Positions 5,727 to 56,166 are shown, counted from the stretch's first letter. The stretch is DNA of 64,000 nucleotides from Smithella sp. M82 (GCA_001683985.1 MAEO01000044.1:18850-82849), one strand, 5' to 3'. Notes: generated by a model from the sequence alone, not told the origin. Numbers and translations: made by a program.

Positions 5727-5747
5727 GCATACCGAAAATACATTCTT

Positions 5748-20642: not shown

Positions 20643-21227
20643 TCATCCGGAATTTTCATTTTTTATTTTCCGGTAATTGATAATATTTTTTCTATGATTA
20701 AACAAGATCAACAGGAAAGTAGCCAGCGCTCCGGATGTTGCGACAAATTGCCAGTCAAGAATTAAAGCCTGACCGCAAGCAAGCGTAAAAACCATAAAGA
20801 ACGATGCGATAAAAGTGATTCGGAAAATTCCGTAAACAATAAGCCAGACTGCTGCCGAAGCAAGAGCAGCCCATGGTGCGACAAGAAGCATAAAGCCCAA
20901 GTAATTGGCCACTCCCTTGCCGCCACGAAAACTATGAAAACAGGGAAAGCTGTTTCCTAAAACAAGAAAAAAACCAGCCCACGGCAGCAATTGTTTTTCT
21001 AAAAAATAAATTGCCACAGCCGCGACCGCTATTGCCCTGCCGATATCCAGCAGAAAAACAAATGCCGCCCAAGCAAATCCTGCCTGACGGTAAACATTTG
21101 TAGTTCCCGCATTGCCGCTGAAACTCAGGCGTGGATCCTTCCTGCCGGTCAGTTTAAAAAAAATAACAGCAAAATTTACGGAACCGGCAAGGTAAGCTGG
21201 CAGATAAATTAAAAATGTTTTACCCAT
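20643..21227 (-). CDS. plsY: Glycerol-3-phosphate acyltransferase PlsY family
   Basis: AYLAGS, DPR..SGNAGTTNVYR, FRGGKGVA and HRKNI motifs; 5 TMs. Confidence 0.85.
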   Translation of the reverse strand: MGKTFLIYLPAYLAGSVNFAVIFFKLTGRKDPRLSFSGNAGTTNVYRQAGFAWAAFVFLLDIGRAIAVAAVAIYFLEKQLLPWAGFFLVLGNSFPCFHSFRGGKGVANYLGFMLLVAPWAALASAAVWLIVYGIFRITFIASFFMVFTLACGQALILDWQFVATSGALATFLLILFNHRKNIINYRKIKNENSG

Positions 21228-21432: not shown

Positions 21433-22296
21433 TTACAAATTTACCTTAATCCAATCTGGTGGATGCATCCTTCCCCTCGTCACATCCTTCATCTTAAGAC
21501 CTTTGATATATTCACACATTATATCCTCTTTATAAATCCAAGCGTCGAATATCAACATATCTCCGGTCATATTAACCGGTATAACCCGCCCCAGATATTC
21601 TTCTTTCTTTTTAGTTTTTTGATAAATTATTCTTTTTTCAAATCCTACGGGGAAAGAAACAATACCGGCAAAGCGCTGACCCCAGACACATGCCGCATGC
21701 ATTGTCGCATCCATTGGAAAAGGCGAACCGAGTAAATTTTCAGCGGCTTCATGGTCCCCGCCGGCAAGATAAGCCAACGCACCTTCAGAAGAAACCGATA
21801 GGTCACCCACAATATTCCGGTAAGCGGTCCCAAAAGGAACCAGTTCACGGTAAATAGTAGTCGAAGGTACGCTGATACATTCCCCTTTCAGTTTATCCAA
21901 CACACGAAAATGATGCGTAACAACCTCTTTCGGATTAATTGTACAGAACTCCACCCGCGCGTGTTCAACTTCGCGGCTGATGGTTCCTGTTTTTGATTTC
22001 ATGGAAGTTAAAAGTGTAGCTGCAATAATTCCACTCCCGGAATTTTCCACATCAACAATAACCGGTTGATTTTCGATATCCTGTGTGATTGTCAGAAAGC
22101 GAGAAAAGGCAGCGTTCTGCAGACAATTTATTTCTGTTCGCGGATAATTTTGTTTGACCGCCCGAGCCAGAAGAATAAGTGATTCTACTGCGGGCAGGAT
22201 CACCTTACCTTCCAGACAGTGATCCCTTAAATAGGAATGAATCTCTATTTCACAGAAATGCCTTTTCTTCTGATTTAAGCCGGAAATGATTTCCAT
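21433..22296 (-). CDS. Stand-alone polyketide-synthase-type dehydratase (double hotdog, PS-DH)
   Basis: HxxxGxxxxP motif (LRDHCLEGKVILPA), Y....FG..YR, and DxxxH (MDATMH). Likely start at ATG 22296, overlapping the thioesterase end. Confidence 0.75.
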   Translation of the reverse strand: MEIISGLNQKKRHFCEIEIHSYLRDHCLEGKVILPAVESLILLARAVKQNYPRTEINCLQNAAFSRFLTITQDIENQPVIVDVENSGSGIIAATLLTSMKSKTGTISREVEHARVEFCTINPKEVVTHHFRVLDKLKGECISVPSTTIYRELVPFGTAYRNIVGDLSVSSEGALAYLAGGDHEAAENLLGSPFPMDATMHAACVWGQRFAGIVSFPVGFEKRIIYQKTKKKEEYLGRVIPVNMTGDMLIFDAWIYKEDIMCEYIKGLKMKDVTRGRMHPPDWIKVNL

Positions 22297-22751
22297 AATT
22301 GAACCGTTTTCGGATCCACGGCCACGGGAGTGCCCGAAAGATTCAGTGCGCAATGTTTGGTAAAACCGGTACAGATTATGTGTCCTTTTTCCTGATGCGT
22401 GATCAGGTAGTCGAATTGCAGACGTACTCTTTCCAGATTGACCGGTCGCGTGTGAATATACATCAAATCATCATAATAAAGAGGCTGATAGAAACTGACA
22501 CCCAAATCAAAAATAGGATAAACATAACCGCTATTCTCGATTTCCTTGTAGGGATAAGCAAGATCGCGCATCAGCGACGTCCGGCCGAATTCAAAATAAC
22601 GCATATAATTGGAATGATACACCACTTGCGAACGATCCGTATCGATATACAAAACCCTGTACACCGAGCGATGCCAGACCAGACCGCTGGTGAGATCGCG
22701 CACATAACGTTCATCATTGTATATTTCAGGTTTAAAAGGTTTGGGCCTCAT
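22275..22751 (-). CDS. Acyl-CoA/acyl-ACP thioesterase, YbgC/4HBT family
   Basis: RVLYIDTDRSQVVYHSNYMRYFEFGR signature. Confidence 0.88.
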   Translation of the reverse strand: MRPKPFKPEIYNDERYVRDLTSGLVWHRSVYRVLYIDTDRSQVVYHSNYMRYFEFGRTSLMRDLAYPYKEIENSGYVYPIFDLGVSFYQPLYYDDLMYIHTRPVNLERVRLQFDYLITHQEKGHIICTGFTKHCALNLSGTPVAVDPKTVQLWKSFPA

Positions 22752-22754
22752 TTT

Positions 22755-24020
22755 CTATACTCCTCTGAAAATTACGCAGCAATTTGTTCCGCCAAATCCA
22801 AAAGCATTGGAAAGAGCAACCTCATATTTATGTTTGCGGGCTTCATTAGGAACGACGTCAATATCCGAAAACTCAGGATCAGGAATATGATTAATCGTCG
22901 GCAGGATGATGCCTTTTTTCATTCCTTCAATAGTCAGAGCCGCTTCGATAGCCGCCGTCGCTCCCAGAGTATGCCCGAGCTGAGACTTGTTTGATGAAAC
23001 GGGAATTTTTTCTATTTTTTTACCGAACACTTCCCTCAGACATTTTACTTCCGTGCTGTCGCCTTTAGGTGTGGAAGTGCCATGAGCATTTATATACTCG
23101 ATATTTTCCGGTTTCAATCCGGCATCATCGATAGTTTCGCGAATAGCCCTGATGATGGTCGGCATATTGGGGCTGGTATAATGATGAGCATCTGATGTCC
23201 ATCCGACACCTAGAATTTCGGCTTTTGGTTTAAGACCGTACATTTTCATAACTTCCTCAGCCGCCAGAACAACAACACCCGCGCCTTCCGAAAGAACAAA
23301 GCCCCTGCGGTCAACACTGAAAGGACGCGATGCCAGCGCCGGGTTATCATAAGCGCGATCTTTGGAATTAACTTTAATAGTGGCGTTCATATTGGCAAAA
23401 CCGTGAATCAGCTCCGGTAAAATGGGAGTATCGGCGCCTCCGGCCAGAACGAAATCGCAATCACCGTCTCTGATCATTCTTGCCCCTATGCCCATAGCGT
23501 GATTACCCGAAGCGCACGCGCCCTGCGGCGAAAAAATAGGCCCGGTAAACTTCAACAGCATTCCCGCCTTGCCGGACGGAAGGTTTGCGCACAAATTAGG
23601 CAACAGATACGGACTTACCCGGAGCGGGCCGCGATGTTCCAAATCGTGAACCGCGACTCGAAAAGCGTCAGAACCGTTAAGCGCTGAACCGATTAGGCAG
23701 GCCATTCGGGGCCCAATTTCGGCATTAATTTCAATTCCGGCATTCTGCAAAGCTTCCTTGCAGACCGCCATAGTCAAAATAACAAAAGCCGCGTTCCAAT
23801 TATACACTTCTTTTGCGTCGGTGAAATCAAGCTCCAGCGGATACCAGTTCGGTATTTCTCCGACGACATCGCAGGCAGATTCGACTTTACAGCGGGTTAC
23901 TTTGCGGAAACCAGCTTCTCCTTTAACCGCCCTTCTCCATGTCTTTTCAAAAGTACTGCCCAGCGGAGTGGCCGCACCGTAACCGACAACAAAGACTTTT
24001 CTGTTCTTGGGAGCTCTCAT
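22755..24020 (-). CDS. Beta-ketoacyl-ACP synthase (FabF-like) KAS-1
   Basis: Cys-His-His triad: GACASG, NAHGTST, GHTLGA; ends NAFGFGGTN. Confidence 0.92.
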   Translation of the reverse strand: MRAPKNRKVFVVGYGAATPLGSTFEKTWRRAVKGEAGFRKVTRCKVESACDVVGEIPNWYPLELDFTDAKEVYNWNAAFVILTMAVCKEALQNAGIEINAEIGPRMACLIGSALNGSDAFRVAVHDLEHRGPLRVSPYLLPNLCANLPSGKAGMLLKFTGPIFSPQGACASGNHAMGIGARMIRDGDCDFVLAGGADTPILPELIHGFANMNATIKVNSKDRAYDNPALASRPFSVDRRGFVLSEGAGVVVLAAEEVMKMYGLKPKAEILGVGWTSDAHHYTSPNMPTIIRAIRETIDDAGLKPENIEYINAHGTSTPKGDSTEVKCLREVFGKKIEKIPVSSNKSQLGHTLGATAAIEAALTIEGMKKGIILPTINHIPDPEFSDIDVVPNEARKHKYEVALSNAFGFGGTNCCVIFRGV

Positions 24021-24034: not shown

Positions 24035-24176
24035 TGTCACTTCAAATCCCGATTTATCGGGGTGGGAAATCTTATTTTCAATTCACAAATTTTAAGAAGA
24101 CAATGTAGTCCGAACCTTTAGGTTCGACTATTTAACTACACTTTCCTCACCCGCTTATAGCGGATTCGGAATGACA
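24035..24176. repeat. TGTCA...GGAATGACA palindromic element with a nested GTAG-REP hairpin
   Basis: Ends TGTCACTTC / CGGAATGACA. Internal hairpins CCCGATTTATCGGG, GTAGTCCGAACCTTTAGGTTCG and CCGCTTATAGCGG. Confidence 0.7.
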
Positions 24177-24187
24177 TTTTTTACAAA

Positions 24188-25441
24188 CTAACCATTCCTG
24201 CGCAAAACCAGGCAGGAGTTGCATCCGCCAAATCCAAAAGCGTTTTTCAGAACAAACTCCTGTTTTAATTTTCTTGCGCCCTCGGCAACACAGTCAATTT
24301 CAATTTCTTTATCCGGAATATAATTAATAGTGGGTAACAATGTGTCTCTTATCATGCCTTCCATAGCAAATATCGCCTCTATCGCACTGGATGCGCCCAT
24401 CGCATGGCCTAGCTGCGATTTATTCGCCGATACCGGTGGCACTTTATTACCGAAAATATTACGCAGCGCATCGGCCTCTACCTTATCTCCTATTTTTGTT
24501 GAAGTCGCGTGCGCGTTGACCGCGTCAATGTCTTGCGGCCGCAAGCCGGCATTGGCAATCGCCTCTTCCATACATCTTTGCACCGTTGTCAAATTCGGTG
24601 AAACAAAATGACCGGCATCCGATGTCATTGACCATCCGGCCATTTCAATATTTGATTTAAGCCCGTGAGCTTTGACGAATTCATCCGTTGCTAAAATAAT
24701 GCAACCCGCGCCTTCAGAAACCACAAACCCACGGCGGTTAACGGAAAACGGCCGGCTGGTTTTCTTCGGTAACTCTTCCGGCTGACCTTCTTTCGGACGA
24801 TATGCGCCGTTCATCGTGGCAAATCCCGCAACGATTGGCTCTACCAGAGGAAAATCCACCGCCCCGCCGATAACCACATCCGCCATGTTTCTTTGCAACA
24901 ACATCTCGCCCATGATGAGCGAAGTAATTCCCGTGGCACAAGCCGTTATCGTCGAACAAATCGGCCCTGTCGCTCCCGTAAGAATGGAAACCTTTCCGCC
25001 CACCATGTTAATACAGGAATTGGGATTGGTAAAAGGATGAGGCATTTTCCCTTCTTTAACCATCAAACGATCAGCCTGTAAAACAGCATCCACTCCTCCG
25101 ACCGCCGTACTGAAAGTAATTGCCACGCGCGGCGCTATTTCCGGAGTTATCTCAATTCCGCTTTTTTTAAGCGCCCGATGCACAACCAACAATGCATATT
25201 TGAAAATAGGTGATGTCCAGTGCGCCAAATCCCGCGGCTGCAAGAAAGGATATGAGCGGGTATCAATTTCTGCAACTTCACCGGCAACACGCACCGGAAA
25301 ACCGGGACTGAGCGGAAACCTAGTCAATTCCCCTATGCCGCAACCTCCGGTAACGGCCCTTTGCCATTGAGCCTCCAAATCCGTACCCAAAGAAGACACC
25401 GTGTCATAACCTAATATTAAAGTTTTCTTTGAACCCACCAC
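24188..25441 (-). CDS. Beta-ketoacyl-ACP synthase (FabF-like) KAS-2
   Basis: TACATG, NAHATST, GHAMGA, NAFGFGG. GTG start overlaps the GIY-YIG gene end. Confidence 0.92.
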   Translation of the reverse strand: MVGSKKTLILGYDTVSSLGTDLEAQWQRAVTGGCGIGELTRFPLSPGFPVRVAGEVAEIDTRSYPFLQPRDLAHWTSPIFKYALLVVHRALKKSGIEITPEIAPRVAITFSTAVGGVDAVLQADRLMVKEGKMPHPFTNPNSCINMVGGKVSILTGATGPICSTITACATGITSLIMGEMLLQRNMADVVIGGAVDFPLVEPIVAGFATMNGAYRPKEGQPEELPKKTSRPFSVNRRGFVVSEGAGCIILATDEFVKAHGLKSNIEMAGWSMTSDAGHFVSPNLTTVQRCMEEAIANAGLRPQDIDAVNAHATSTKIGDKVEADALRNIFGNKVPPVSANKSQLGHAMGASSAIEAIFAMEGMIRDTLLPTINYIPDKEIEIDCVAEGARKLKQEFVLKNAFGFGGCNSCLVLRRNG

Positions 25442-25721
25442 TTAAATCCCGCCAGCTTGGATTTTCTTGATTAACAAGTTTGTCCTTTTTTTCTCTACGC
25501 CAATTTTTAATTTCTTTTTCTCTTATTATTGCAACATTAATATCCCTTGTTTCTTCAAAGTAAACTAACTTACTCAAATTATACTTTTCAGAAAAGCCTG
25601 GAATCAATTTATTCTTGTGTTCATAAATTCTACGACTCAAATCATTAGTAACACCGACATAGATTACTTTATTATTCCAATTGGTCAACAAATAGACATA
25701 ATACTTCTTTGTGAAGACCAT
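25404..25721 (-). CDS. Small GIY-YIG nuclease family protein
   Basis: YYVYLL...IYVGVTNDLSRRIYEHK...F..KY...LVYFE...AI.REK.IK.WRREKK..L....NP.W.DL. Confidence 0.9.
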   Translation of the reverse strand: MVFTKKYYVYLLTNWNNKVIYVGVTNDLSRRIYEHKNKLIPGFSEKYNLSKLVYFEETRDINVAIIREKEIKNWRREKKDKLVNQENPSWRDLSGGFKENFNIRL

Positions 25722-25771
25722 TTGTTATTTCTTTCTAAGCAGAAGAATTAACGACCAAAGCTAATATCGTT

Positions 25772-25892
25772 TGTCATTTCGACCCGGCAAATGCCGGGGA
25801 GAAATCCATGTCCCGAGTGTAACGAGGGGTCTTCTAAGATTCCTCACCCGATAAATCGGGATTTACCCTTAAGGGCACTTCGCGGAATGACA
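25772..25892. repeat. TGTCATTTCGAC...CGGAATGACA palindromic element upstream of the GIY-YIG gene
   Basis: Terminal inverted repeats plus the internal core GGAGAAATC...GATTCCTC and hairpins CCCGGCAAATGCCGGG and CCCGATAAATCGGG. Confidence 0.8.
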
Positions 25893-25975
25893 TTGCTTAT
25901 AATATTCTCCGGAACAGTCCGGAAATGTTTGGAATCTGCCAATAAAGATGGGTTTATATCAGAATTCTAAAAGGA

Positions 25976-26974
25976 TTACCAAGAAATAAAGTGATACAGT
26001 TTGGCAAACATTTCATACACTTCGATCCAGTTTTGCAAATCTTTGGTCGACTTCAAATGTTCGCGTTTATTGACCATTACCCAGCTCATGTGCGCCGCAC
26101 CGTCTTTACATGTGGAGCAATCGCGCGTCGCCGACGTACAGCAGCGATGAACTGTTTTTAAATCGGATGCCCAGCGGACAAAGTGAATCAGGCGGCGGGG
26201 ACGATTTTCTCTATTGTCCAAGGATTCCGTAACGGAGGGACACTCACTCCAGCCGAAGCTGCGTCCCATCATTTTTCCGGTGGTAATGACTTCGTGATAA
26301 TATTTGCAGGAAATTACAGTTTGCGGATAATGGTCGAGCATTTCGTCCATTTCAAAACGCAGATCTTTCAGCTCGCCCTCTTGCCAGGAAAATCCGTCCA
26401 CACCCTCATCGTTCGATAAAAGCTGCAGATGAACTTTTAAACCGACGTCGGCGATTCTTTTGATTACCGGTTCAATTTTCCCCACCTGACGCGGTGTAAT
26501 CGTATAGAGATAATAAGTGTATTTGTCTCCTTCATAATTTTTACTGGAAACGGCAAAGGTATCGCGTCCCCGAAGAACCTTTTCATCTTCACTGTCGCCC
26601 CACAACGAAATTCCCACTATCATATCGGGAAATTTATCGCGGGGAACCTTAATCAGGCCGTTGGTGGCACAATACGTAGGCAGGCGTTTGTAGAAAGCCT
26701 CGACGCGCTCCATACACAAAGTCGGCTCGCCGCCGATGAGAATTGCCAGATTAACTCCCCGCTCTTTTTCACGATCAATGAATTCTTCCCACTTTTTGAT
26801 ATCCATTTCTTCCACTGCCGCCTGATGTTCTCCCGAAGAAAAGAAAAAACATCCCTTGCAGCGCAAATTGCAGCGGTTGGTTACATCATATATGGAACTG
26901 CGGATATTCAAGTTGGAAATCCGTCTGTATCTTTCATACCAATCTTTATCCAGTAATGAACTGACTGTTTTCAT
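25976..26974 (-). CDS. Radical SAM protein B (lipid cluster)
   Basis: CNLRCKGC, GGEP and a C-terminal Cys cluster C...CC-x6-C-x2-C. Confidence 0.9.
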   Translation of the reverse strand: MKTVSSLLDKDWYERYRRISNLNIRSSIYDVTNRCNLRCKGCFFFSSGEHQAAVEEMDIKKWEEFIDREKERGVNLAILIGGEPTLCMERVEAFYKRLPTYCATNGLIKVPRDKFPDMIVGISLWGDSEDEKVLRGRDTFAVSSKNYEGDKYTYYLYTITPRQVGKIEPVIKRIADVGLKVHLQLLSNDEGVDGFSWQEGELKDLRFEMDEMLDHYPQTVISCKYYHEVITTGKMMGRSFGWSECPSVTESLDNRENRPRRLIHFVRWASDLKTVHRCCTSATRDCSTCKDGAAHMSWVMVNKREHLKSTKDLQNWIEVYEMFAKLYHFISW

Positions 26975-27012
26975 CAGAACTTCCTAATTTATACTCGCAA
27001 TGACATTATGCG

Positions 27013-27168
27013 TGTCCCCCGCTGGCGGGGGATTAAGGGGATGGATAGTTTTATAGCTTTTGATTGCAGGGCATACTTTCCAAATGTACTGCAATTGGGA
27101 CTGCTCTTGTAACAGTCTTTACAACATCCACCTCCGTCACTACCTGACACCTCCGCCAGCGGAGGACA
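27013..27168. repeat. Palindromic element, TGTCCCCCGCTGGCG family, copy 2
   Basis: TGTCCCCCGCTGGCGGGGGATTAAGGGG...CACCTCCGTCACTAC..CCTCCGCCAGCGGAGGACA with terminal IRs. Confidence 0.8.
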
Positions 27169-27183
27169 AGTAATGACAAATTT

Positions 27184-28284
27184 TCATGTTGCTGCCGCAT
27201 GCGGCGGCTCTATAATATCATTACAAAGATTTTTGCCTTTTTCGTAACCCATTACCCAAACCGCCAGATAAGTATCCACATAATCCAGCCACGATTTAAA
27301 CGTATCCATACTATCTACATGCCTGTAAAGACGCGCCGTAACAACCGCAGAACCCGCGGCGTAATGACGGCAATCTACACAATCCGTATCCGGCACGCAA
27401 CAGGCAACAGACCTGTCCCAGTTCAAATCTGTCCGGTACTGCCTGAAAGACCTTCCCAGTCCGATATCCTGCGAAGGATTCTGACGGGGATACGAGCAGC
27501 CGTATAAATCGTGCAAACCTTTTTTATGAGTGTGCGCCACGGCATTATAAACTGAAAAAAGAACATTTTGCGGATATTTACCCAAAAGATCTATCATTGT
27601 CAATTGCATCCGTTTAAGAGAGTCATCATCATGCCGCAGATTTCCCGTATAACCGACCGGTGAGGAAAAAACATTAAAGGTCAATTTACAATTGTGGGCG
27701 ACAAGCTCTTCGGTGACTTCTTTTACTTCATCAATATTATTCCGCGTAAAGGTATAAACAAAAACTGCGCGCGGATCATTTTCGTAATTCTCGATCTGCT
27801 TCTTTAAAAGGTTTTTAGCCTTTCTAATTCTCAGGCTGGTTTCATCATTTCCCCAAACGGAAATATGCAGCTTATAGCCGACCGAGTCCGGTATTTTTTT
27901 AAAGCCGTTGGTGGCGATGCTACCCAGCGGCATTTCCTGATAACAAACATCGAGCAATTCCGGAACCAGAGAAGGTTCTGCTCCCGCCAGAACAACATAG
28001 GTAATGCCGCGCGCCTTCTCCGCCCGCATCAGTTCGCGCCATGCCTCAACATCGCCAATTTCTTTGGCAAATTGTTTTGTCCCTTCATAATAATAACACC
28101 CGTCGCAACGGATATTACAGCGGTTGGTCATATCGTAGGTCGATTCCCGAAGAAAAAAATATTTCCTCACTTTTTCCCAGCGCTCTTTAACTTCCGTCTG
28201 GGCTAAAAGCTCGGAAAATTTCGGTTTGTTTGATTCCGGATTTAATTTACGATTAACCTGCATAAATTTGACAGAACCCATCAA
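27184..28284 (-). CDS. Radical SAM protein A (lipid cluster), paralog of 25976..26974
   Basis: CNIRCDGC, AGAEP and a C-terminal CC-x5-C-x2-C. Shares the S.YD.TNRCN.RC, TNG..K.P and ISxWG motifs with B. Confidence 0.9.
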   Translation of the reverse strand: MMGSVKFMQVNRKLNPESNKPKFSELLAQTEVKERWEKVRKYFFLRESTYDMTNRCNIRCDGCYYYEGTKQFAKEIGDVEAWRELMRAEKARGITYVVLAGAEPSLVPELLDVCYQEMPLGSIATNGFKKIPDSVGYKLHISVWGNDETSLRIRKAKNLLKKQIENYENDPRAVFVYTFTRNNIDEVKEVTEELVAHNCKLTFNVFSSPVGYTGNLRHDDDSLKRMQLTMIDLLGKYPQNVLFSVYNAVAHTHKKGLHDLYGCSYPRQNPSQDIGLGRSFRQYRTDLNWDRSVACCVPDTDCVDCRHYAAGSAVVTARLYRHVDSMDTFKSWLDYVDTYLAVWVMGYEKGKNLCNDIIEPPHAAAT

Positions 28285-28560
28285 CTAATTTTTTGTGGCA
28301 AGTTTTTCTTCAATATATTCGGAAATAAGGCGTATGGTTTTTAATTTGGGATAATCATCTTCGTCTATTGTAATATCGTATTCATCCTGTAAGATCAATG
28401 CGACAGTCGCCAGATCCATACTGTCAATGCCCAGTTCATCCACCAGATCCATATCCGAATTAAAAGTATCTGCGGTAACGTCTTCCAATTTCAACTCATC
28501 AATAATAATTTCGGCCACGTGCCGTATAATGCCTTTGATATCTTGATTTACAGGCATCAC
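28285..28560 (-). CDS. Acyl carrier protein
   Basis: Acidic 91 aa with LGIDSMD. GGAGGA RBS. Abuts radical SAM A. Confidence 0.9.
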   Translation of the reverse strand: MMPVNQDIKGIIRHVAEIIIDELKLEDVTADTFNSDMDLVDELGIDSMDLATVALILQDEYDITIDEDDYPKLKTIRLISEYIEEKLATKN

Positions 28561-28593
28561 TATCCTCCTTAGAATAATTATTTATATTTACTT

Positions 28594-28989
28594 TTATCCA
28601 TTTATTTTTTTAGCAGTCATATGTCCGCTACTTACAATATTTTCTTTCTTCATTATTTTGAAAGAAAATGAAACATCATCACCCGCATCTTCAGAATTTA
28701 TACTTATTGACAATTTATCCCCCGGCCTTACCGGTTGCATAAATCTGACTCTTCTTAGCGAATGTAACTGAAGCTGCATTCCTTTTTTAAGCGCTTCCTC
28801 TAAAATAGCCTGTTTAACTGCGGCAACCAAGGCTACTCCGGGAAGAATCGGTTCTCCCGGAAAGTGACCGGAAAACCAGGGAGAATCAGCCGGCACATCC
28901 CCTAATGCCTCAATATGATTACCATTAGTTGCCTTTATTTCTTTTAATAAACTCCACTGATTGCCCAATAAATATACCTCATTGGCCAA
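28594..28989 (-). CDS. Single-hotdog dehydratase (FabZ/ApeI-like)
   Basis: SPWFSGHFPGEPILPGVAL and VRFMQPVRPGD. Confidence 0.8.
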   Translation of the reverse strand: MANEVYLLGNQWSLLKEIKATNGNHIEALGDVPADSPWFSGHFPGEPILPGVALVAAVKQAILEEALKKGMQLQLHSLRRVRFMQPVRPGDKLSISINSEDAGDDVSFSFKIMKKENIVSSGHMTAKKING

Positions 28990-29103
28990 TTTTTAATCAA
29001 ATGAATGCCAAAAGAACATAAATTCATATCATTGATTTTTTTTCAACTAAAAAATTAATGAGTCCCAAGTTTCAGAAGTGAAGCACGCTAAAACTTGCTG
29101 GAC

Positions 29104-29220
29104 GAATTATCCGGCGTATGCCGGATAATAAATCAACACCTACAGGGACGGACTCAGGCATGCGAACTATCCCAGGCGCTTAGCGCCGTGGTAAAACAAG
29201 CTGAGCGAAGCGAAGGGGGA
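29104..29220. repeat. Cluster of short REP-like hairpins
   Basis: ATTATCCGGCGTATGCCGGATAAT; CCCAGGCGCTTAGCGCCGTGG; CTGAGCGAAGCGAAGG. Confidence 0.5.
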
Positions 29221-29246
29221 TTTGTACCTTAGAAATATTTTTTGAA

Positions 29247-29275
29247 TTGACATTCAAAATCTATGTGCTTATAAA
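29247..29275 (+). promoter_or_regulatory. sigma70-type promoter
   Basis: TTGACA-17 nt-TATAAA upstream of the plus-strand membrane gene. Confidence 0.5.
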
Positions 29276-29465
29276 TACACATCTTAAAGAATTAAAAAAT
29301 CGTTTCATATATTTTTTACAAAGACAGTTTTCAAGTTTAAATATCTGAATTTTTTAAAAATGCATTTCAGGTCAATAAAAAAAGATATGAAAACTGCTAA
29401 CGAAACAGGATATTTGCCCCCCCTGAAAATTGATATTGCGCTTTCATTTAGGAGTAAGTCCAAAC

Positions 29466-30123
29466 ATGAAAAAACCTTCTCTGATAAACGTTACTGCAAT
29501 CATTATGATTGGTATTTATATTTATAGTATTATCAGCCAATTGTCATATTTGGCAGAGCATTATGATTCTGTCATGGTGGCTCTCACATCTGATTTTCGC
29601 ACCAATTACAACATAATGATAATTATTTTTCTGTATGCGGTGTTATTGCCGGAACTGGTTTATATTTCCATAAGAATTGGTCTCAATTCTTAGCTATCCT
29701 TATTGCTACATTGTTTGTCTTACAGTCCTTCCAGGGCCTTCTGGTAATTGCTTTTACGAACGAAAACGGCGATAAGATTAAGATTGCGACGGAACTTATC
29801 ATTTATTTATTATTCGCAGCCTGGTGCTTGTATTACCTAAATCTAACTGAAGTTGATGAAAAGTTAAAAAAAGCTTTTCCTTCTTTATATTGCCTCTGTC
29901 AGGTTTTGTATCCGGCATCAGCCTTTTGGGTAAAAAGAACTGGGCTCGTAAAATTGCGGTTATATTTTCAATGGTAGCAATCGCCTTCTATGTACAAAGT
30001 TTCTTTATTTATAATGATAGAATTATAAGAGTTGGAATTGCTTTATTGTTGCCTCTGCCTGTATGGTCTTTATATTATTTTACTCAACCGCATATAAAAG
30101 TGTTATTTGCACAAAAATTATAA
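29466..30123 (+). pseudogene. Frameshifted membrane protein (three consecutive hydrophobic ORFs)
   Basis: GGAG + ATG 29466. The off-frame GTGLYFHKNWSQFLAIL runs into ORF 29711, and the third ORF repeats the motif (GISLLGKKNWARKIAV; WCLYYL / WSLYYF). Confidence 0.55.
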
Positions 30124-30179
30124 CGTAAGAATAACAGAAGCCTCTTTTTGTCTCATTCTTAGCCGACAGTTAATCCGTT

Positions 30180-30983
30180 TTACCGTTTAATCGTCATTAC
30201 ATCTCTGCCAATCAAATCGGTAATCGGCACAACTCTCAAACATTTATCCACAAGTCCCTTCAGTATCTTTTCAATTTCCGTCAGTAAAGCAGCACTGTTT
30301 TTTTCACGGTGCGGATTAACATCGTGCAGCAAAATGATATCGTCCGCTTTTACTTTTTTAAGAATTCTCGAACTGAGATTCTTAATGTTACGGTTACCGG
30401 CATCACCGGCACGGCAACTGAATGTTACGCAAAACAATCCAAGTTTATTCAGCACCTGCGGCAGCTTGGGGCTGATTATGCCTACCGGCGGGCGGAAAGC
30501 CAGAACGTTTACGCCCATTTTTTTGAGAACTTCCTGCGCCCGTAACACTTCCTGATAGAGATAATTATAGCTTCCCAGCATCAAGAAAGGATTATGGTGA
30601 AAAGAATGATTGCCGATAGTGTGACCGCGGTTGATTATTTCTTTGATTATTTCAGGATATTTTAAAGCATTGACACCGGAGACAAAGAAAGTTGCTTTCA
30701 CGGCATACTTATCCAGCAACGCAAGTATTTGTCTTGTCGTCGGTTCATCGGGGCCGTCATCGAAAGTCAGGGCAACCATATTTTTACCGGTATTACCGCG
30801 GCTGATTACAGGCAGGTAAAAACTACTCCGATAACAAAATGACGCGACGACACAAAGTAAAATATAAAAAAGCGCGATTACTATGGCAAGCCATGAATTG
30901 ATAAAGAAAGCAGCCGCGGCGACAGACAAGAAAACTATTCCTGTGATTTGGGCCGGACTTAAGGATGAAGATTTGTTTTTCAT
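30180..30983 (-). CDS. Polysaccharide deacetylase (CE4/NodB) with N-terminal TM helices
   Basis: ALTFDDGP, ATFF, GHTIGNHSFHH, FRPPVG and ILLHD. Start at ATG 30983; the longer ORF start runs through a repeat. Confidence 0.88.
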   Translation of the reverse strand: MKNKSSSLSPAQITGIVFLSVAAAAFFINSWLAIVIALFYILLCVVASFCYRSSFYLPVISRGNTGKNMVALTFDDGPDEPTTRQILALLDKYAVKATFFVSGVNALKYPEIIKEIINRGHTIGNHSFHHNPFLMLGSYNYLYQEVLRAQEVLKKMGVNVLAFRPPVGIISPKLPQVLNKLGLFCVTFSCRAGDAGNRNIKNLSSRILKKVKADDIILLHDVNPHREKNSAALLTEIEKILKGLVDKCLRVVPITDLIGRDVMTIKR

Positions 30984-31003
30984 TGATACATCCTTTACCC
31001 ATT

Positions 31004-31179
31004 TGTCATGTCGAACCAAGAAAGACATCTTAAAGATGTTAAAAAAGATTTCTCGTCTCTTCGTTCCTCGAAATGACAAATAAAGCTAATGGATTCCGGC
31101 TGTTTACTCCGGAAGGGAACCCCGGCGCATGCCGGGCATGCTGGGTATGCCTGGGTATGTCGGATGCGCCGGAATGACG
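31004..31179. repeat. Two adjacent TGTCAT...AATGAC-family elements
   Basis: 31004-31078 TGTCATGTCGAAC...GATTTCTCG...CCTCGAAATGACA; 31091-31179 GGATTCCGGC...GCCGGAATGACG containing the GGGAACCCCGGC..GCCTGGGTATG module. Confidence 0.75.
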
Positions 31180-31361: not shown

Positions 31362-32711
31362 TTACTGGATTAGGTATTCCCACAGAGGCCCCGTAAATCC
31401 GCGCCTATACAATTTCGGCAAAATGCGCGTTGCCTTGGCTTCGCCGGCGCCGATAAGCCAGTTCACGCGACCGTTAGCCTTATTTTCCACCATCTTCATT
31501 ATCTCTTCAACCGATATTCCCGGCGAGCGGTAAAATACAGGCGGCAGGATATTTTCATCCGCCGTAATCTGCCCTTCTCGCAAAGCAATCTCATACAAGG
31601 CTGTGTGCGGATAGATGCGGACACCGCAAAAGAAGAAGAAAACCGCTTTTCCCAGAGAGTCTATTCCAGCCAAGGTATTTTGCAGAGTTTGTTTGTTTTC
31701 GCCAGGTCCGCCCAGCAAAAAATAATGGGCAACGTGCAACCCGGCATCAAGAGCATTTTTATGAGCTATAAAAACATTTTCCGACTTAAAAGGTTTGTGC
31801 AAGTTGGTCAGCACCGTATCCGATAAAGATTCCGTCCCGAATTCCACATGGGTCAATCCGGCTTCGGCCAACCGCTTAAAATAATCAGCCGGTGGAACTG
31901 TCGGAACAAAAAAACATCCCCAGGGAATGGAAACTTTTGCTTTAACAAAAGCCTCCGCGACCTCTCTACTGTGATCGTAACTGGCATTAAAGGCGGAATC
32001 GATGATGAAGATATATTTGGCGCCGGCATCCTGCAATTCGCGGGCGTTCTTAGCTATTTCCTGCGGAGGGTAAAACCGCATCCGACTGCCTTCAATGTGA
32101 GGATAAGTACAGTAACTGCACTGAAACGGACAACCTCTTTTTGTCTGCAGGTTAAGCATGCCGCCGTAAGAAAGATAAAAATTTGTATGTCGACCGGCCG
32201 GATCAAAATGCCTGTTGATCGCGCCGCTATACGGCTCGTAAACAATATTTGTCTTTTCCTTTGTCACAACACCGAGGATTTTTTTAATATCCGTTTTTTT
32301 CTCCAGAGCATCCAGAAGCTGCGCGAGCCTTTCACCTTCGCCGACAATTCCGTAATCGGCATCAAGCGCCTGCATGAACTCAACCGGAAAAATTGTAAAA
32401 CCGCTCCCGCCCAGAATTATTTTCGCCTGGGAATTTGTTTTTACCTGACGAATCAAATTCTGATATTCCGGCAAGAAGCTCCGGCAGTTGAGTACATCGG
32501 TATTGTCAATGTTTCTGATTGATATGCCGGCAAAATCAGGAGAAAATTCTTTGATCATCGCTTCCAGAGTTTCCGGATGGGAGAAATCGTTTAAATCAAC
32601 AATTTTTACCTGGTAACGGGAATCCAGAGAACCGGCTACATAATCCAGTCCCAGCGGATATACGGGGTAAGGAATTCTAAGAGTATTTGCTGAAATTAGC
32701 AGTATTTTCAT
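31362..32711 (-). CDS. Cobalamin-binding radical SAM protein, lipid-biosynthesis type (TIGR04072-like)
   Basis: N-terminal B12 domain (PYPVYPLGLDYV, GISIRNIDN, LGGSGF, GEGE), QTKRGCPFQCSYCTYPHIEG, and EFGTES; lies next to an ACP gene. Confidence 0.85.
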   Translation of the reverse strand: MKILLISANTLRIPYPVYPLGLDYVAGSLDSRYQVKIVDLNDFSHPETLEAMIKEFSPDFAGISIRNIDNTDVLNCRSFLPEYQNLIRQVKTNSQAKIILGGSGFTIFPVEFMQALDADYGIVGEGERLAQLLDALEKKTDIKKILGVVTKEKTNIVYEPYSGAINRHFDPAGRHTNFYLSYGGMLNLQTKRGCPFQCSYCTYPHIEGSRMRFYPPQEIAKNARELQDAGAKYIFIIDSAFNASYDHSREVAEAFVKAKVSIPWGCFFVPTVPPADYFKRLAEAGLTHVEFGTESLSDTVLTNLHKPFKSENVFIAHKNALDAGLHVAHYFLLGGPGENKQTLQNTLAGIDSLGKAVFFFFCGVRIYPHTALYEIALREGQITADENILPPVFYRSPGISVEEIMKMVENKANGRVNWLIGAGEAKATRILPKLYRRGFTGPLWEYLIQ

Positions 32712-32946: not shown

Positions 32947-33216
32947 TCAGCCTTTTTTACGGTTATTAGAAATATATGTAGCCAGAGCGCGCACTGATGC
33001 AAAAACCTTAACGCCCAGTTGTTTGTTATCTATTTTAACGCCGTAGTCTTTTTCAATCATCATCACCAGTTCCAGAATATCAATGGAATCAATTCCCAGA
33101 TCGCCCCCCACAAGACGTTCATCGTCTTTGATGTCTTCGGGGCCTACGTCAATCAAACCCAGTGTATCAATAATTTTAACTTTAAGTTCACTTATCATTT
33201 TCTCAATCTGACTCAT
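32947..33216 (-). CDS. Acyl carrier protein
   Basis: LGIDSIDILEL; AGGAG RBS. Confidence 0.9.
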   Translation of the reverse strand: MSQIEKMISELKVKIIDTLGLIDVGPEDIKDDERLVGGDLGIDSIDILELVMMIEKDYGVKIDNKQLGVKVFASVRALATYISNNRKKG

Positions 33217-33383: not shown

Positions 33384-33794
33384 TTATCCTGTTGCATTGT
33401 TTCTCTGGTTTTCCAGCGGATTTGATCTTATTGCATTAATCTCATCACCCAGAACTTTTTCCAGCACAATTCTGACAACCCAACGTCCCAGCGCCTTGCT
33501 GTATTTGGGACCGGCAAGATAAATTCCCAACATCAAAAGCAGCCACGAGACACCGTAAATCAGCGGAATTCCCACGACTCCAAACATTGGCGATTTCAGC
33601 CAGGCGGCAATTCCACCTACTATGAATACTGCCGGTATGCCAAGAAAATAACCGCAAAAAATCAAAACAAGACCAACAATCACGGTGGCCGTAAGTTTTT
33701 CCCTGAAAATACTTAAGTCAGCGTGTTCACATATTGCGTTTCGGCAAAATTCCTTCCGGGCAAAATAAAGCGCCGCCTTTTTTATTATGCTCAA
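33384..33794 (-). CDS. Hypothetical membrane protein (2-3 TMs)
   Basis: 136-aa ORF co-oriented between fabA and the ACP gene; hydrophobic, with ADLSIFR and GIYLAG. Confidence 0.7.
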   Translation of the reverse strand: MSIIKKAALYFARKEFCRNAICEHADLSIFREKLTATVIVGLVLIFCGYFLGIPAVFIVGGIAAWLKSPMFGVVGIPLIYGVSWLLLMLGIYLAGPKYSKALGRWVVRIVLEKVLGDEINAIRSNPLENQRNNATG

Positions 33795-33876: not shown

Positions 33877-34467
33877 TTACTTTTCCATGATACCGCCTAT
33901 AGAATATTTTGAACGAAGCGGATAATCTTTGTAGGCGATATCCTTAAAAACTCCCGTCCGCGCCTGTCCTACAGTGGCAATCAATTCATTATCTATGTAA
34001 ATGCGGCCGTCACCAATTACTATACTCGCGCCCGATTCCTTCAAAAGAGAATAACGCCGCACATCAACTTCAAAACGAACACATTTGTTAAACGGACGAA
34101 TCTGACCGTTAAAAGCTACTTCTCCGCAACCCAATGCCCTGCCCGTACCCAGCGAACCTTTCCAAACGCAGAAAAAACCAAGTAATTGCCAGATAGCGTC
34201 TACTCCCAGGCATCCGGGCTGTACCGGATCACCCGAAAAATGGCATTGAAAATACCATGCATCCAGACGAATGTCCTGTTCAGCTATTATCTTTCCCTGC
34301 TTTCCGTCACTTTCTATCAACAGTATACGATCAACCATAAGAAAGGGAGGCGCAGGAAGTTTCGCGTCAAAATGTTCCGGAGGATCGGTTATCAGCCGGC
34401 CATAAGAAAAAGCAAGAAGCTCTTCAAAGTTGAAATGATCGCGCTTTAAAAATTCCTGATATTTCAT
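33877..34467 (-). CDS. fabA: 3-hydroxydecanoyl-ACP dehydratase/isomerase
   Basis: LPAPPFLMVDRI, WYFQCHFSGDPVQPGCLGVDAIWQLLGFF (His/Asp dyad of FabA) and GRALG.G.V.F.GQ. Confidence 0.9.
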   Translation of the reverse strand: MKYQEFLKRDHFNFEELLAFSYGRLITDPPEHFDAKLPAPPFLMVDRILLIESDGKQGKIIAEQDIRLDAWYFQCHFSGDPVQPGCLGVDAIWQLLGFFCVWKGSLGTGRALGCGEVAFNGQIRPFNKCVRFEVDVRRYSLLKESGASIVIGDGRIYIDNELIATVGQARTGVFKDIAYKDYPLRSKYSIGGIMEK

Positions 34468-37334: not shown

Positions 37335-39023
37335 TTATCCTACAGCTTTTCGGTATTCACTTACCAGCGCTTCTTTGGAAACGCCAAGATCAATGATATC
37401 CCACGGCAGAATTTCATCGAATTGCTTTTGGCGGTAAACGTAGAAATCCGGATTTACATTCACTTCTTTTAACGCCTGCGCCCAATTTTCTTCCAGACGG
37501 TTTACAGCCAGTAATAATTCACCCACCCGACGATCACCTAAAGAAAGCAGGGCCTGAATATAGTTCCACTTCGGAACGTCGTGGATAACTTTGATCTGCT
37601 TATCCTTACTAAAAGCATTCTTGATTTTTTTGATTTTTTTGCCGGCTTCATGGACATCGGCCAGCGCGCACCACTGCAAAGGTGTTTTAGGCTTTGGAAT
37701 AAATTGATTAATACTCAGCGTAATACGCCGGAACTTTTTTTTACCTTTAAAATAATGCAGGATATGGCTCTGAACTTTTTTTACAAGTTCAATTATGGCA
37801 TCGATATCTTTTTCTTCTTCTTCAGCCAGTCCCACCATAAAATAGAGCCTCAAACTGGTAATTTCTTTTTTTACCAATAATTCTATCGCATGAATTATCT
37901 CCGCTTCAGTTATGCCTTTACGCAAAAGGTCACGCATTCTCTGACTGCCCGCCTCCGGGGCAAGCGCGACCGTTTCAATGCCATTGGCTTTTATTAAATC
38001 AACAGTTTCTTCATTTATCCGGTCAATTCGCAGAGAACCAAAACCGGCCTGTGCCCTTTGTGCAATTATATGTCCACAAATATGTATCAGATCGGGATGA
38101 TCGGAAACAGCCGTACCGACAAGACCTATTTTCTTTTTTCTTTCCAATCCACGGTTAATAGAAGCAGTAATTTCAGCTTTGTTACGAAAACGCGGTGGGC
38201 AATAAACGAAACTAGCCGCACAAAAACGACAGCTTCTGGCGCAACCTCTGTTTACTTCCACCAGAAACATATCTTCCATTTCGGTTTGAGGCGCACTAAT
38301 AATTTCTTCTGTAGAAAATGAATTAATGTCTCTTACATGTTGTATTTTTATTTTGTCAGGCAAATCAACTTCACAAGGCTTTATTGACTGAATCCTGCCT
38401 TCTATAGAATAATTTACCTTATAAAGGCTGGGAACATAAATATTGCTTGTTTTTCTTTGTAGATTTTTTAGCAACTCCTGCCGTTCAAGAGCAAGAAGGC
38501 GTGCCTCTTCAAAGTAACGGCAGAACTGTGGTAACGCTTCTTCGGCTTCACCTAAAATAAACAAATCAAAGAAATCAGCCAGCGGTTCGGGATTGAGCGT
38601 AGGAGCAATACCACCACCGACAATCAAAGGATAATGCTCTGAACGATCCTTTGCCAACAAGGGTATCCCCGCAAAATCCAGCATTTTTAATATATTGGGA
38701 TAATCGTTTTCGAACGATAAAGAAAATGCCAAAATGTCAAATTCGATTATTGGTTTTTGATTTTCCAGGCTAAATATTTCTGCCGTTCCGGAAGTGTATT
38801 CGGCGTCGTTTCCGGGATCCGGCAGAAATACTCTCTCACATAGGAAGGAAGATTGCTCATTAAATATTTTATATACCGTTTGAAAGCCCAGGTTTGCCAT
38901 GCCTGTACGATAATAATTCGGGTATGCCAGACAAACCGTATTGTATGTGCCCCAAACTTTTCTTATATATCCAGTCTCTCTTTCTAGAACGGCAGCATGT
39001 TTTCTTCTAACTTTCCAATCCAT
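37335..39023 (-). CDS. B12-binding-like/radical SAM protein (TIGR03960-like), downstream of ftsZ
   Basis: LAYPNYY..GMANLG, FS..FE.DY, NPEPLADF, EVNRGCARSCRFC, APEAGS and YFMVGL. Confidence 0.82.
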   Translation of the reverse strand: MDWKVRRKHAAVLERETGYIRKVWGTYNTVCLAYPNYYRTGMANLGFQTVYKIFNEQSSFLCERVFLPDPGNDAEYTSGTAEIFSLENQKPIIEFDILAFSLSFENDYPNILKMLDFAGIPLLAKDRSEHYPLIVGGGIAPTLNPEPLADFFDLFILGEAEEALPQFCRYFEEARLLALERQELLKNLQRKTSNIYVPSLYKVNYSIEGRIQSIKPCEVDLPDKIKIQHVRDINSFSTEEIISAPQTEMEDMFLVEVNRGCARSCRFCAASFVYCPPRFRNKAEITASINRGLERKKKIGLVGTAVSDHPDLIHICGHIIAQRAQAGFGSLRIDRINEETVDLIKANGIETVALAPEAGSQRMRDLLRKGITEAEIIHAIELLVKKEITSLRLYFMVGLAEEEEKDIDAIIELVKKVQSHILHYFKGKKKFRRITLSINQFIPKPKTPLQWCALADVHEAGKKIKKIKNAFSKDKQIKVIHDVPKWNYIQALLSLGDRRVGELLLAVNRLEENWAQALKEVNVNPDFYVYRQKQFDEILPWDIIDLGVSKEALVSEYRKAVG

Positions 39024-39054
39024 TACTTCTCATGGCCTGTATCTAATAATCTTT

Positions 39055-40209
39055 CTAATCGGCCTGACGGCGTAAAAACGTCGGAACCTGTATATCGGTC
39101 ATATTGTCGGCTTCATCGCTAATATTAACATTCGTAAAATTCAGATTGTTTTGTCCCTTCCCCCGGCGTATGAAAGCAGGTGTCGATAAATCATCCCGAC
39201 GGAAACCTCCCAAATGTGTTACGTTTCCCAGTGATTCCTTTTTCTTTGATATATTATCAAAACCGGTGGCGATGACTGTGATACGAATTTCATCCTTCAT
39301 ATTCTGATCAATTACAGTTCCGAAAATAATATTCGCTTCTTCATCTGCTTCTTCTTGAATCAACGACGAAGCTTCATTAACCTCACAAAGGCTCATATCC
39401 GGTCCACCTGTAATATTGAGCAAAATTCCCCGTGCGCCCTGGATGGTATTGTTTTCCAACAAAGGAGATGAAATCGCTTTCTGGGCTGCTTCTACCGCCC
39501 GGTTTTCGCCGCTTGCCGCGCCTGTACCCATAATGGCTATGCCCATGTTGGTCATGACACTCTTTACATCGGCAAAATCAAGGTTGATCAGTCCCGGAAC
39601 CAGTATCAGATCCGATATGCCTTTAACCGCCTGATAAAGAATATCATCCGCCTTTTTGAACGCTTCCAAAAGCGACAAATTGCGGCCACCCAAACTTAGA
39701 AGTCGTTGGTTGGGAACAACAATAAGCGTATCTACAATATCCCGCAATTGTGCGATACCCTCTTCAGCCTGAATATTACGTTTTTTACCTTCAAACTGGA
39801 AAGGTTTGGTAACTACAGCAATGGTCAGAATGCTGCATTCACGGGCTATCTCCGCAATCACAGGGGCCGCGCCTGTTCCGGTTCCTCCTCCCATCCCGGC
39901 GGTGATAAAAATCATGTCCGCACCTTCCAGAAACGGCCTGATTTCATCGCGCGATTCCAGCGCCGCCTGTTTGCCGATTTCAGGATTGGAACCGGCTCCC
40001 AGACCTTTCGTTATCTGTGAACCGATTTGAAGCTTAATTGGCGCATTGGACACGCCGAGTGCCTGCGCGTCCGTATTGGCGTTGATGAAATCGACTCCTC
40101 CCAGAGACGACGCAATCATTGTATTAACGGCGTTTCCGCCGCCGCCGCCTACGCCGATCACCTTTATTTTCGCCAAATTTTCACTGCATACTTCTGTTAA
40201 TTCAAACAT
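39055..40209 (-). CDS. ftsZ: Cell division protein FtsZ
   Basis: [18 protein letters not shown] tubulin signature, NLDFAD and C-terminal PTFLRRQAD. Confidence 0.98.
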
Positions 40210-40224
40210 GTTCTCTCCTTCCTT

Positions 40225-41451: not shown

Positions 41452-41500
41452 CAGCCCTCTCACCTCATTTTAAATTTTACCATTTAAAAAACTTTTCTCT

Positions 41501-44673: not shown

Positions 44674-44691
44674 TTACACTGCCATTTTTTC

Positions 44692-45822: not shown

Positions 45823-45875
45823 ACCCCTTTTAACTTTTTTTCAGCAAACAGCTGAGCTTCCTCAACTTTCTTTCA

Positions 45876-46982: not shown

Positions 46983-46983
46983 T

Positions 46984-48327: not shown

Positions 48328-48334
48328 GGGTCAT

Positions 48335-49414: not shown

Positions 49415-49432
49415 TTTTTAATTCACTCCTGT

Positions 49433-50878: not shown

Positions 50879-50882
50879 CGAT

Positions 50883-52412: not shown

Positions 52413-52419
52413 CAAAACC

Positions 52420-54393: not shown

Positions 54394-54394
54394 A

Positions 54395-54742: not shown

Positions 54743-54743
54743 C

Positions 54744-55679: not shown

Positions 55680-55682
55680 GAT

Positions 55683-56129: not shown

Positions 56130-56166
56130 CACTTTACCTCCACAATAAGCCACTTTACTCCACTGG
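56130..56166 (-). promoter_or_regulatory. MraZ-binding direct repeats
   Basis: Minus strand AGTGGagtaa AGTGGcttat TGTGGaggta aAGTG: three GTGG at 10-nt periodicity directly upstream of mraZ. Confidence 0.75.

Follow-up and report, generated by a model that had tools for sequence, protein, structure and literature searches.

What do two adjacent radical S-adenosylmethionine (SAM) enzymes do when they are encoded directly behind an acyl carrier protein (ACP) of their own, among genes of the fatty-acid type? This question is raised by a 64,000-nt stretch of DNA from Smithella sp. M82 (GCA_001683985.1 MAEO01000044.1:18850-82849; hereafter the window, with positions counted from its first letter), in which the minus strand encodes ACP1 (28285..28560), radical SAM A (27184..28284, 366 aa in its longest frame) and radical SAM B (25976..26974, 332 aa). 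An earlier note, drawn from the sequence alone, had described A and B as tandem paralogs coupled to ACP1 and had proposed them as a candidate new class of lipid tailoring enzymes. The feature is real, well defined and strongly conserved, and represents a further copy of a known, unsolved type of cluster. Radical tailoring of an ACP1-bound chain within a lipid pathway is, in our judgement, the probable role of the pair. That the chemistry is net-oxidative, either desaturation or ring closure, is a doubtful proposition when taken by itself, and the whole proposal, radical tailoring of the ACP1 chain by net-oxidative chemistry, is offered tentatively, as somewhat short of an even chance.

The paralogy of A and B is evident from their alignment (28% identity over 310 residues, E 2e-38), and the translations bear out the motifs quoted in the earlier note: both proteins contain S.YD.TNRCN.RC..C, TNG..K.P and ISxWG and end in a cysteine-rich segment, CC-x5-C-x2-C in A and CC-x6-C-x2-C in B, and they differ at the GGE position, which reads AGAEP in A and GGEP in B. 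PF04055 matches just the N-terminal third of each protein, slightly above threshold (31.4 bits for A and 31.6 bits for B; cut-off 29.5). The cysteines of the CX3CX2C motif (C56, C60 and C63 in A; C35, C39 and C42 in B) are invariant in sets of 40, 32 and 27 aligned sequences. Across 40 diverse family members, a GGE-type glutamate, an NG pair, an arginine and C295, C302 and C305 (A numbering) are likewise invariant. A-type sequences conserve C295, C296, C302 and C305 throughout, while the 27 sequences of the B clade conserve C35, C39, C42, C245, C278, C279, C286 and C289. The number of conserved C-terminal cysteines is thus only 4-5 in either type, and no match to PF13186 (SPASM) was obtained for A or B at E<=0.01, the full seven-cysteine motif being absent; a twitch-like, single auxiliary site therefore fits better. 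We read A and B as twitch-like radical SAM enzymes with one predicted auxiliary cluster each, which makes the auxiliary Fe-S site suggested previously a plausible one, in keeping also with the twitch/SPASM-like character of the structural models.

The family to which A and B belong is small and without a name. In a search of 1.84 billion representatives, 505 clusters proved to be related at E<=1e-3 and 87 of them at the stricter threshold of E<=1e-30, and no NCBIfam model came near its cut-off for either protein. The best of these were Tes, PapB, ScmE and SkfB: NF045702 (Tes / GDGT-MAS), whose cut-off is 450, scored 32.9 bits with A and 28.0 bits with B, and TIGR04403 (SkfB), whose cut-off is 300, scored 28.9 bits with A. 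At the level of sequence profiles the family matches SkfB at E 8.6e-18. AlphaFold2 models of high quality (predicted local distance difference test, 89.4 for A and 90.5 for B) both display the partial TIM-barrel fold of solved radical SAM enzymes; that of A is closest to SkfB (6efn, Z 17.5, root-mean-square deviation 2.4 over 223 aligned residues), BlsE (7vob, Z 17.5) and anSMEcpe (4k36, Z 17.4), and that of B to BlsE (7vob, Z 17.6) and SkfB (6efn, Z 17.2). After the tied SkfB, BlsE and anSME come viperins, SuiB, MoaA and GDGT-MAS, with LipA far lower. SkfB, BlsE, anSMEcpe and SuiB (5v1q) have in common with A and B the partial TIM-barrel core and a cysteine-bearing C-terminal extension; however, they are only 13-21% identical to them and act on peptides, proteins and nucleosides, whereas A and B lie in an acyl-chain operon.

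Such relatives bear on three rival explanations. Since the nearest solved relatives in both sequence and fold (SkfB, SuiB, anSME, CteB) are peptide or protein maturases, ACP1 itself might be the substrate, an ACP-like protein that A and B cross-link or otherwise modify; yet its phosphopantetheine serine motif is intact and its domain score is that of an ACP, and the conserved neighbors (ketosynthases, dehydratases and a thioesterase) act on acyl chains, so that we give this idea hardly any credence. A LipA- or BioB-like reaction, in which the auxiliary cluster would donate sulfur for insertion into the acyl chain, would agree with a likely auxiliary cluster, a substrate that is probably a carrier-bound acyl group and the presence of lipoyl synthase folds among the matches (Z 11.5-11.7). 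However, these LipA matches rank only about 42nd, far under the twitch/SPASM enzymes, and no LipA or BioB family appears among the NCBIfam matches of A or among the best 25 of the 42 matches of B; in addition, the ketosynthases downstream imply further elongation, which would be hard to square with a thiolated chain. Sulfur insertion is accordingly rated as highly improbable.

The third possibility is that A and B join chains through C-C bonds or add a carbon unit, by a coupling like that of Tes/GDGT-MAS or Mss or by radical addition, with no oxidation involved. Enzymes of this type are established as joining lipid tails, as far as the accessible part of a recent review goes (PMC13459092), and a faint likeness is seen here in the NF045702 score of A and in the fold matches to GDGT-MAS (7tom, Z 13.0 for A; 7tol/7tom, Z 12.6-12.7 for B). 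Nevertheless, that score lies far under its cut-off, other radical SAM folds score higher, and Tes and Mss work on lipid tails according to the same portion of the review (PMC13459092), whereas the tie here is to an ACP and ketosynthases; C-C coupling is considered quite unlikely. More generally, Tes/GDGT-MAS, Mss, Jaw5 and Ted resemble the chemistry envisaged for A and B in that radical SAM enzymes attack an inert lipid carbon, be it for C-C coupling, cyclopropanation or oxygen-free desaturation (accessible parts of PMC13459092 and preprint 10.1101/2025.10.20.683597). They differ in that Tes, Mss and Ted modify lipid tails and not carrier-bound intermediates, according to those parts of the sources; Ted is of the B12 type, and A and B are not members of these families.

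Why there are two enzymes is a related issue. In a quick tree the A clade and the B clade are sisters, separate from a third, larger clade of distant homologs, and the tree thereby marks A and B as an anciently duplicated pair. As neither clade has lost any motif, both A and B should be catalytically competent, a prediction from the alignments. Alternatively, A and B might form an obligate heteromer, with a single catalytic subunit and a partner that acts as scaffold or docks the ACP. The strict tandem co-occurrence of the genes and the old duplication into sister clades would suit it, and a pairing of active and inactive homologs is described for the anammox FabF in the part of a preprint that was accessible (10.64898/2026.05.19.726425). 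On the other hand, the CX3CX2C motif, the GGE-type glutamate and the C-terminal cysteines are kept without exception in both clades, which is not expected of a dead subunit, and we regard such a heteromer as very unlikely. Prediction of an A+B complex gave a score of 0.00 in both runs, a result that weighs neither for nor against binding.

The connection of the pair with ACP1 (PF00550, 37.3 bits; serine motif GIDSMD) was examined at the gene junctions. The ACP1 stop codon TAG (28287-28285) runs straight into the TTG ATG of the longest A frame, so that the direct abutment described in the earlier note holds for that frame. Database homologs of A are mostly 357-361 aa long and their alignments begin at residue 7-8 of A; on this basis A may really begin at Met8, which would make it a protein of 359 aa and leave a gap of 21 nt after ACP1. 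Over 77 loci, the closest in-frame A start lies a median distance of 18 nt from the ACP1 stop (0 nt in 7/77), and ACP1 and A are tightly linked whichever A start holds. ACP1 is placed for translation together with A and B. Between A and B the window has a spacer of 209 nt (26975..27183) with the repeat that had been noticed before, an inverted repeat with 26-nt arms (27013-27038 / 27143-27168); the arms are found at 10 other sites of the genome. The median A-B spacer in related loci is only 47 nt, and the repeat element is therefore an insertion and not a component of the system. Palindromic repeat units flank B on both sides (25740-25975 and 26975-27183), and both stretches have raised contig depth in other metagenomes; in one metagenome run a variant has 27046-27124 exchanged for 33 other letters. 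Positions 24100-29000 are covered in one piece, with 28 differing letters, by a contig of an unrelated metagenome run, and hence the arrangement is not an assembly artefact.

In a scan of one genome per species, 515 loci were found to encode a relative; gene order was counted in the best 80 of these, all close relatives (65-89% identity to A), wherever the contig reaches far enough. They are labelled as Smithella, Syntrophaceae/Syntrophales, Desulfobacterales and Desulforhopalus, plus one Spirochaetota and one Gammaproteobacteria metagenome-assembled genome (MAG). B lies within 700 nt downstream of A in 73/73 loci, ACP1 upstream of A in 76/77, a FabZ-like gene upstream of ACP1 in 67/75 and the ketosynthase (KS) gene KS1 downstream of B in 63/66, so that the proposed link to a dedicated ACP and to genes of the fatty-acid type has become very strong. 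The order conserved across loci is FabZ-like gene, ACP, A, B, two ketosynthases, thioesterase and dehydratase of the polyketide synthase (PKS) type, often followed by PlsY, which closes the block in 30 loci, Desulfobacterales included. Median identity to the window proteins is highest for KS2 (84%, the most conserved of the block), followed by B (82%) and by A, KS1, ACP1 and the thioesterase (78%), with clearly lower values for the PKS-type dehydratase (50%) and the FabZ-like protein (47%); A, B and KS2 are under strong purifying selection.

In an even sample of 401 genomes from the phylum of the window, 31 had a match and 29/31 carried the A-B tandem. Among 201 genomes of a second phylum, that of the "Spirochaetota" MAG, all 8 with a match had the tandem (8/8; identity of A, 55-75%), and so close a similarity between phyla suggests that the pair has moved laterally among anaerobes. 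The operon, a compact one, is widespread in anaerobes and comes from habitats such as oil facilities, wastewater and sediments. The earlier note had also reasoned that homologs occurring singly, outside fatty-acid contexts, would speak against its proposal. The orthologs are paired and lie in lipid-type contexts; in the one neighborhood read for the third clade, a distant homolog (34% identity) stands alone beside DnaE2/ImuB-type DNA-repair, sorbosone-dehydrogenase and TamB genes, with no lipid genes. The named ones among 30 clusters of the family that were looked up come from Alphaproteobacteria (Ponticaulis, Sphingomonadaceae, Beijerinckia), Blastocatellia/Pyrinomonadaceae and Desulfobacterales or "Bacteroidales", and those of the protein atlas from Thermodesulfobacteriota and Pseudomonadota only.

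The genes around the pair form a single block on the minus strand, from 34467 down to 20643. It opens with a FabA-type 3-hydroxyacyl-ACP dehydratase/isomerase (33877..34467; PF07977, 132.7 bits; NF003509, 199.2 bits, cut-off 124), which is found upstream, with the order kept, in 25 related loci (72-95% identity). This is followed by a small hydrophobic membrane protein (33384..33794), whose position is kept in related loci and which had zero matches in Pfam and NCBIfam, and by a second ACP, ACP2 (32947..33216; PF00550, 39.7 bits; serine motif GIDSID). Next come a B12-binding radical SAM protein (31362..32711; PF02310 and PF04055) that exceeds the cut-off of TIGR04072, "rSAM_ladder_B12" (402.7 bits, cut-off 360), a membrane-anchored protein of the polysaccharide-deacetylase family (30180..31079; PF01522, 108.3 bits) and an AT-rich gap. 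The second half of the block begins with a FabZ/ApeI-like single hot-dog dehydratase (28594..28989; PF07977, 47.6 bits; ApeI-like PF22818, 32.2 bits, cut-off 28.5; motif HFPGEPILPG) and continues with ACP1, A, B, a GIY-YIG gene, KS1 (24188..25441; PF00109, PF02801), KS2 (22755..24020; PF00109, 124.8 bits), a hot-dog thioesterase of the 4HBT, YbgC/FadM type (22275..22751; PF13279, 48.2 bits; TIGR00051, 79.8 bits, cut-off 68.7), a PKS-type double hot-dog dehydratase of 306 aa (21433..22353; weak PF21089 and PF14765) and, finally, PlsY, the acyl-phosphate:glycerol-3-phosphate acyltransferase (20643..21227; PF02660, 130.1 bits).

In an alignment with the housekeeping FabF, both FabF-like ketosynthases retain the catalytic residues C164, H304 and H341, which rules out KS1/KS2 as a ketosynthase/chain-length-factor pair with a dead partner. 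The 306-aa protein has H26..G30..P35 and D196..H200 invariant in 20 orthologs, and we take H..G....P and D...H to be the catalytic motifs of PKS dehydratases; these motifs rule out the protein encoded at 21433-22353 as a phosphopantetheinyl transferase. No ketoreductase (KR), enoyl reductase (ER) or malonyl transferase was found in the block with Pfam and NCBIfam, and so those steps are either borrowed or the chain stays unsaturated. PlsY is the sole PF02660 match in a genome rated 100% complete. With two ACPs and two ketosynthases the operon provides extra ACPs and FabF paralogs beside the housekeeping fatty acid synthase (FAS), and a separate FabF-AcpP pair, as well as further ketosynthase matches, lies elsewhere in the genome (the pair on contig C8).

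Based on this gene content it can be hypothesized that A and B, each equipped with a [4Fe-4S] site for SAM cleavage and a single auxiliary Fe-S site ligated by cysteines, would act on a chain tethered to ACP1 within a type II FAS/PKS-like operon. The FabA, FabZ/ApeI-like and PKS-type dehydratases would supply a 2-enoyl or acyl intermediate, from which the 5'-deoxyadenosyl radical would take the hydrogen of an unactivated C-H bond, A and B performing two successive oxygen-free, net-oxidative steps. The auxiliary cluster could then take up an electron from the substrate radical, so that either a new C=C bond would form or a C-C ring would be closed onto the enoyl thioester. KS1 and KS2 would extend the modified chain, and the thioesterase and then the only PlsY of the cell would pass the product to membrane phospholipid. 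We infer here that ACP1 carries the substrate, and likewise the order of steps, the reaction type and the fate of the product. Auxiliary clusters in twitch/SPASM-type enzymes commonly accept an electron or bind the substrate. Net oxidation is favored because it is what auxiliary clusters in this fold class usually serve, and a precedent exists in Ted, a B12 radical SAM enzyme that, according to the available portion of its preprint, desaturates inert lipid carbons without oxygen (10.1101/2025.10.20.683597). The intact Cys-His-His triads of both ketosynthases would make elongation after tailoring possible, and closure of the operon by the only PlsY of the genome links it to membrane lipid.

Several points weigh against this proposal. 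The proposed type of reaction was guessed from the fold class and the neighboring genes, and the type and number of the clusters are not readable from sequence. None of the nearest solved relatives acts on lipids, their substrates being peptides, proteins or nucleotides. As the operon has neither KR nor ER, its gene content does not fix the redox state of the substrate, and the adjacency of PlsY could be mere housekeeping gene order. We know of no unusual lipid from Smithella. A literature search yielded no paper that characterises a member of the A/B family. Furthermore, according to the accessible part of PMC2649909, Desulfotalea psychrophila, which has a similar cluster, made no ladderanes and yielded acyclic polyunsaturated compounds only.

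A different product was also considered, namely a specialised secondary lipid or pigment of the polyene or aryl-polyene type, with A and B tailoring the polyene. The operon does resemble aryl-polyene type II PKS clusters in its ApeI-type dehydratase (PF22818 above cut-off), pair of ketosynthases and hot-dog thioesterase, to which the PKS-type dehydratase and the lack of an ER may be added; only about 7% of the genomes sampled from the phylum have the pair, and a Desulforhopalus locus has an LPLAT acyltransferase, a glycosyltransferase-like gene and an MMPL transporter beside the block, a set that we take to be aryl-polyene cluster genes. Aryl-polyene clusters have, by definition, a starter-activating adenylation enzyme and a dedicated ketoreductase. 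However, neither is found among the 15 operon proteins, which gave no AMP-binding or short-chain-dehydrogenase match; the block closes with PlsY here and in 29 other loci, this being the sole PlsY of the genome, and it is conserved at housekeeping level. A polyene product is thus judged unlikely.

The Desulforhopalus MAG locus (L007 1-7100) illustrates that in other lineages the A-B block sits inside a larger, variable lipid cluster. Upstream of A-B it carries an extra ketosynthase, the LPLAT acyltransferase, a second B12 radical SAM gene (its product 23% identical to that of the window) and a radical SAM gene of the PF13186 SPASM type, and downstream of the block an MMPL-type transporter. TIGR04072 is over its cut-off in 21/29 pair-holding genomes and in 78/401 genomes overall, that is, this B12 enzyme is associated with the pair yet separable from it.

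Is such a cluster new? As far as the accessible text goes, Rattray et al. reported in 2009 that Kuenenia has extended type II FAS clusters with "SAM radical" genes, kuste3342 and kuste3343 being adjacent (PMC2649909), that these clusters are strikingly syntenic with D. psychrophila (DP1853, DP1855) and that similar ones exist in Geobacter and Pelobacter (PMC2649909). The same part of that report describes kuste3351 as a membrane-anchored protein of the polysaccharide-deacetylase family (PMC2649909). Javidpour et al. (2016) assigned kuste3339 as FabZ, 3340 as ACP, 3341 as FabG and 3342/3343 as radical SAM enzymes, and found both kuste3342 and kuste3343 proteins undetectable on expression in Escherichia coli (PMC4790861). 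The kuste3335-3352 and D. psychrophila loci share with the window FabZ, an ACP, two adjacent radical SAM genes, several FabF, a second ACP and a deacetylase-like gene, and the B12 radical SAM enzyme of the kuste2803 kind has its counterpart in the TIGR04072 protein. Moreover, Desulforhopalus, of the family of Desulfotalea, has the A-B block beside MMPL-type and glycosyltransferase-like genes, gene kinds that Rattray et al., in the part available, gave for D. psychrophila. The published gene order and the block in the Desulforhopalus MAGs thus make it likely that A-B is the same pair as kuste3342/3343 and DP1853/DP1855, a comparison made by gene order and description. There are also differences, as the window operon is without a FabG, phytoene-desaturase-like, SAM-methyltransferase or CoA-ligase gene, and its host is a Smithella-like syntroph, not an anammox bacterium. 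No Brocadiales name occurred among the 10 named family clusters (30 representatives looked up, most of them without a name). The designation "candidate new class" was overstated and is only partly supported, in that the operon has a TIGR04072 member and clusters combining type II FAS with radical SAM genes have been described since 2009.

Related clusters have been recognized in other contexts. antiSMASH "ladderane" clusters of unknown function occur in Desulfobacterota and other phyla (PMC9902471), and a 2026 review gives, in the part that was accessible and leaving aside Jaw5 and the ladderane proposals, no characterised case of a radical SAM enzyme that acts on fatty-acid-type chains (PMC13459092). 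Cluster I of anammox bacteria (kuste3603-3608: amxACP, amxFabZ, amxFabF2/amxFabFmut, PDH and a B12 radical SAM enzyme) resembles the window operon in its private ACP, FabZ variant, FabF pair and B12 radical SAM gene (PMC10139942; preprint 10.64898/2026.05.19.726425, accessible parts). One of its FabF is mutated, according to the portion of the preprint at hand (10.64898/2026.05.19.726425), whereas both ketosynthase triads are intact in the window; in addition, Cluster I is not described with a tandem pair of the A/B type, and the window operon lacks a phytoene-dehydrogenase homolog.

A "ring as the chain grows" stepwise route to ladderanes has been proposed on paper (PMC10139942). By analogy, A and B might be iterative radical cyclases that would close a small carbocycle onto 2-enoyl-ACP1 after each dehydration by the FabZ-like enzyme, before extension by KS1/KS2, an idea that we consider a long shot. 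If true, it would mean that non-anammox anaerobes (Desulfobacterota and the second phylum, labelled Spirochaetota) make undetected cyclic membrane fatty acids and that the A/B family represents the missing enzymology of strained-ring lipids. Independently of that idea, the pair together with its own carrier protein is a sharply defined and experimentally untouched candidate, and hence an attractive target for biochemistry. Solving it would reveal how fatty chains are functionalised without oxygen and show what the non-anammox "ladderane" matches of genome mining encode, and might provide a new lipid biomarker for syntrophs and sulfate reducers.

The GIY-YIG gene (25404-25721, minus strand), which encodes a 105-aa nuclease-domain protein, lies between B and KS1 and shares 38 nt at its 3' end with the longest KS1 frame. 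Two further copies with 51% and 42% identity are present in the genome, and in related loci the gene takes the same spot (L013) or lies between KS1 and KS2 (L063); this pattern suggests a small mobile gene, inserted time and again into the intergenic gaps of the operon. The deacetylase-like and FabZ-like genes are separated by an AT-rich gap of 1.2 kb (28990-30179; guanine-plus-cytosine fraction 0.37 in the 28001-30000 bin) with three short plus-strand open reading frames, in different frames and with hydrophobic translations. These two genes are adjacent in several related loci and several kb apart in others, and the gap may mark a site where insertions recur or the remains of a gene.

The genome has several accessory FAS/PKS-like modules besides the A-B operon. 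Within its 2.75 Mb there are 11 ketosynthase-domain and 6 ACP-type matches, including an adjacent ketosynthase pair on contig C18, pairs of ketosynthase and ACP on C5 and C129, and matches on C112. Contig C10 has a further weak radical SAM match, the third of the genome, which was set aside, as it is of the SPASM type, lies among heme-synthesis genes and is unrelated to the A/B family.

The top protein matches of the window are from Smithella, a "Smithella sp. SDB" protein sharing 97% identity with A, and the chromosomal surroundings are ordinary, with a complete mraZ-to-ftsZ cell-division block at 37335-56153. At the end of this cluster, directly after ftsZ, a radical SAM protein of 562 aa with a Radical_SAM_N2 domain is encoded (37335-39023, minus strand). 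On the plus strand, 4692-9418 encodes a NeuB-type sugar synthase followed by an AMP-binding enzyme, a LuxE-like acyl-protein synthetase and a LuxC-like acyl-CoA reductase, within a sugar-modification cluster that also has a DegT aminotransferase and a methyltransferase; the placement of fatty-aldehyde-type enzymes beside nonulosonic-acid genes is an unusual pairing.

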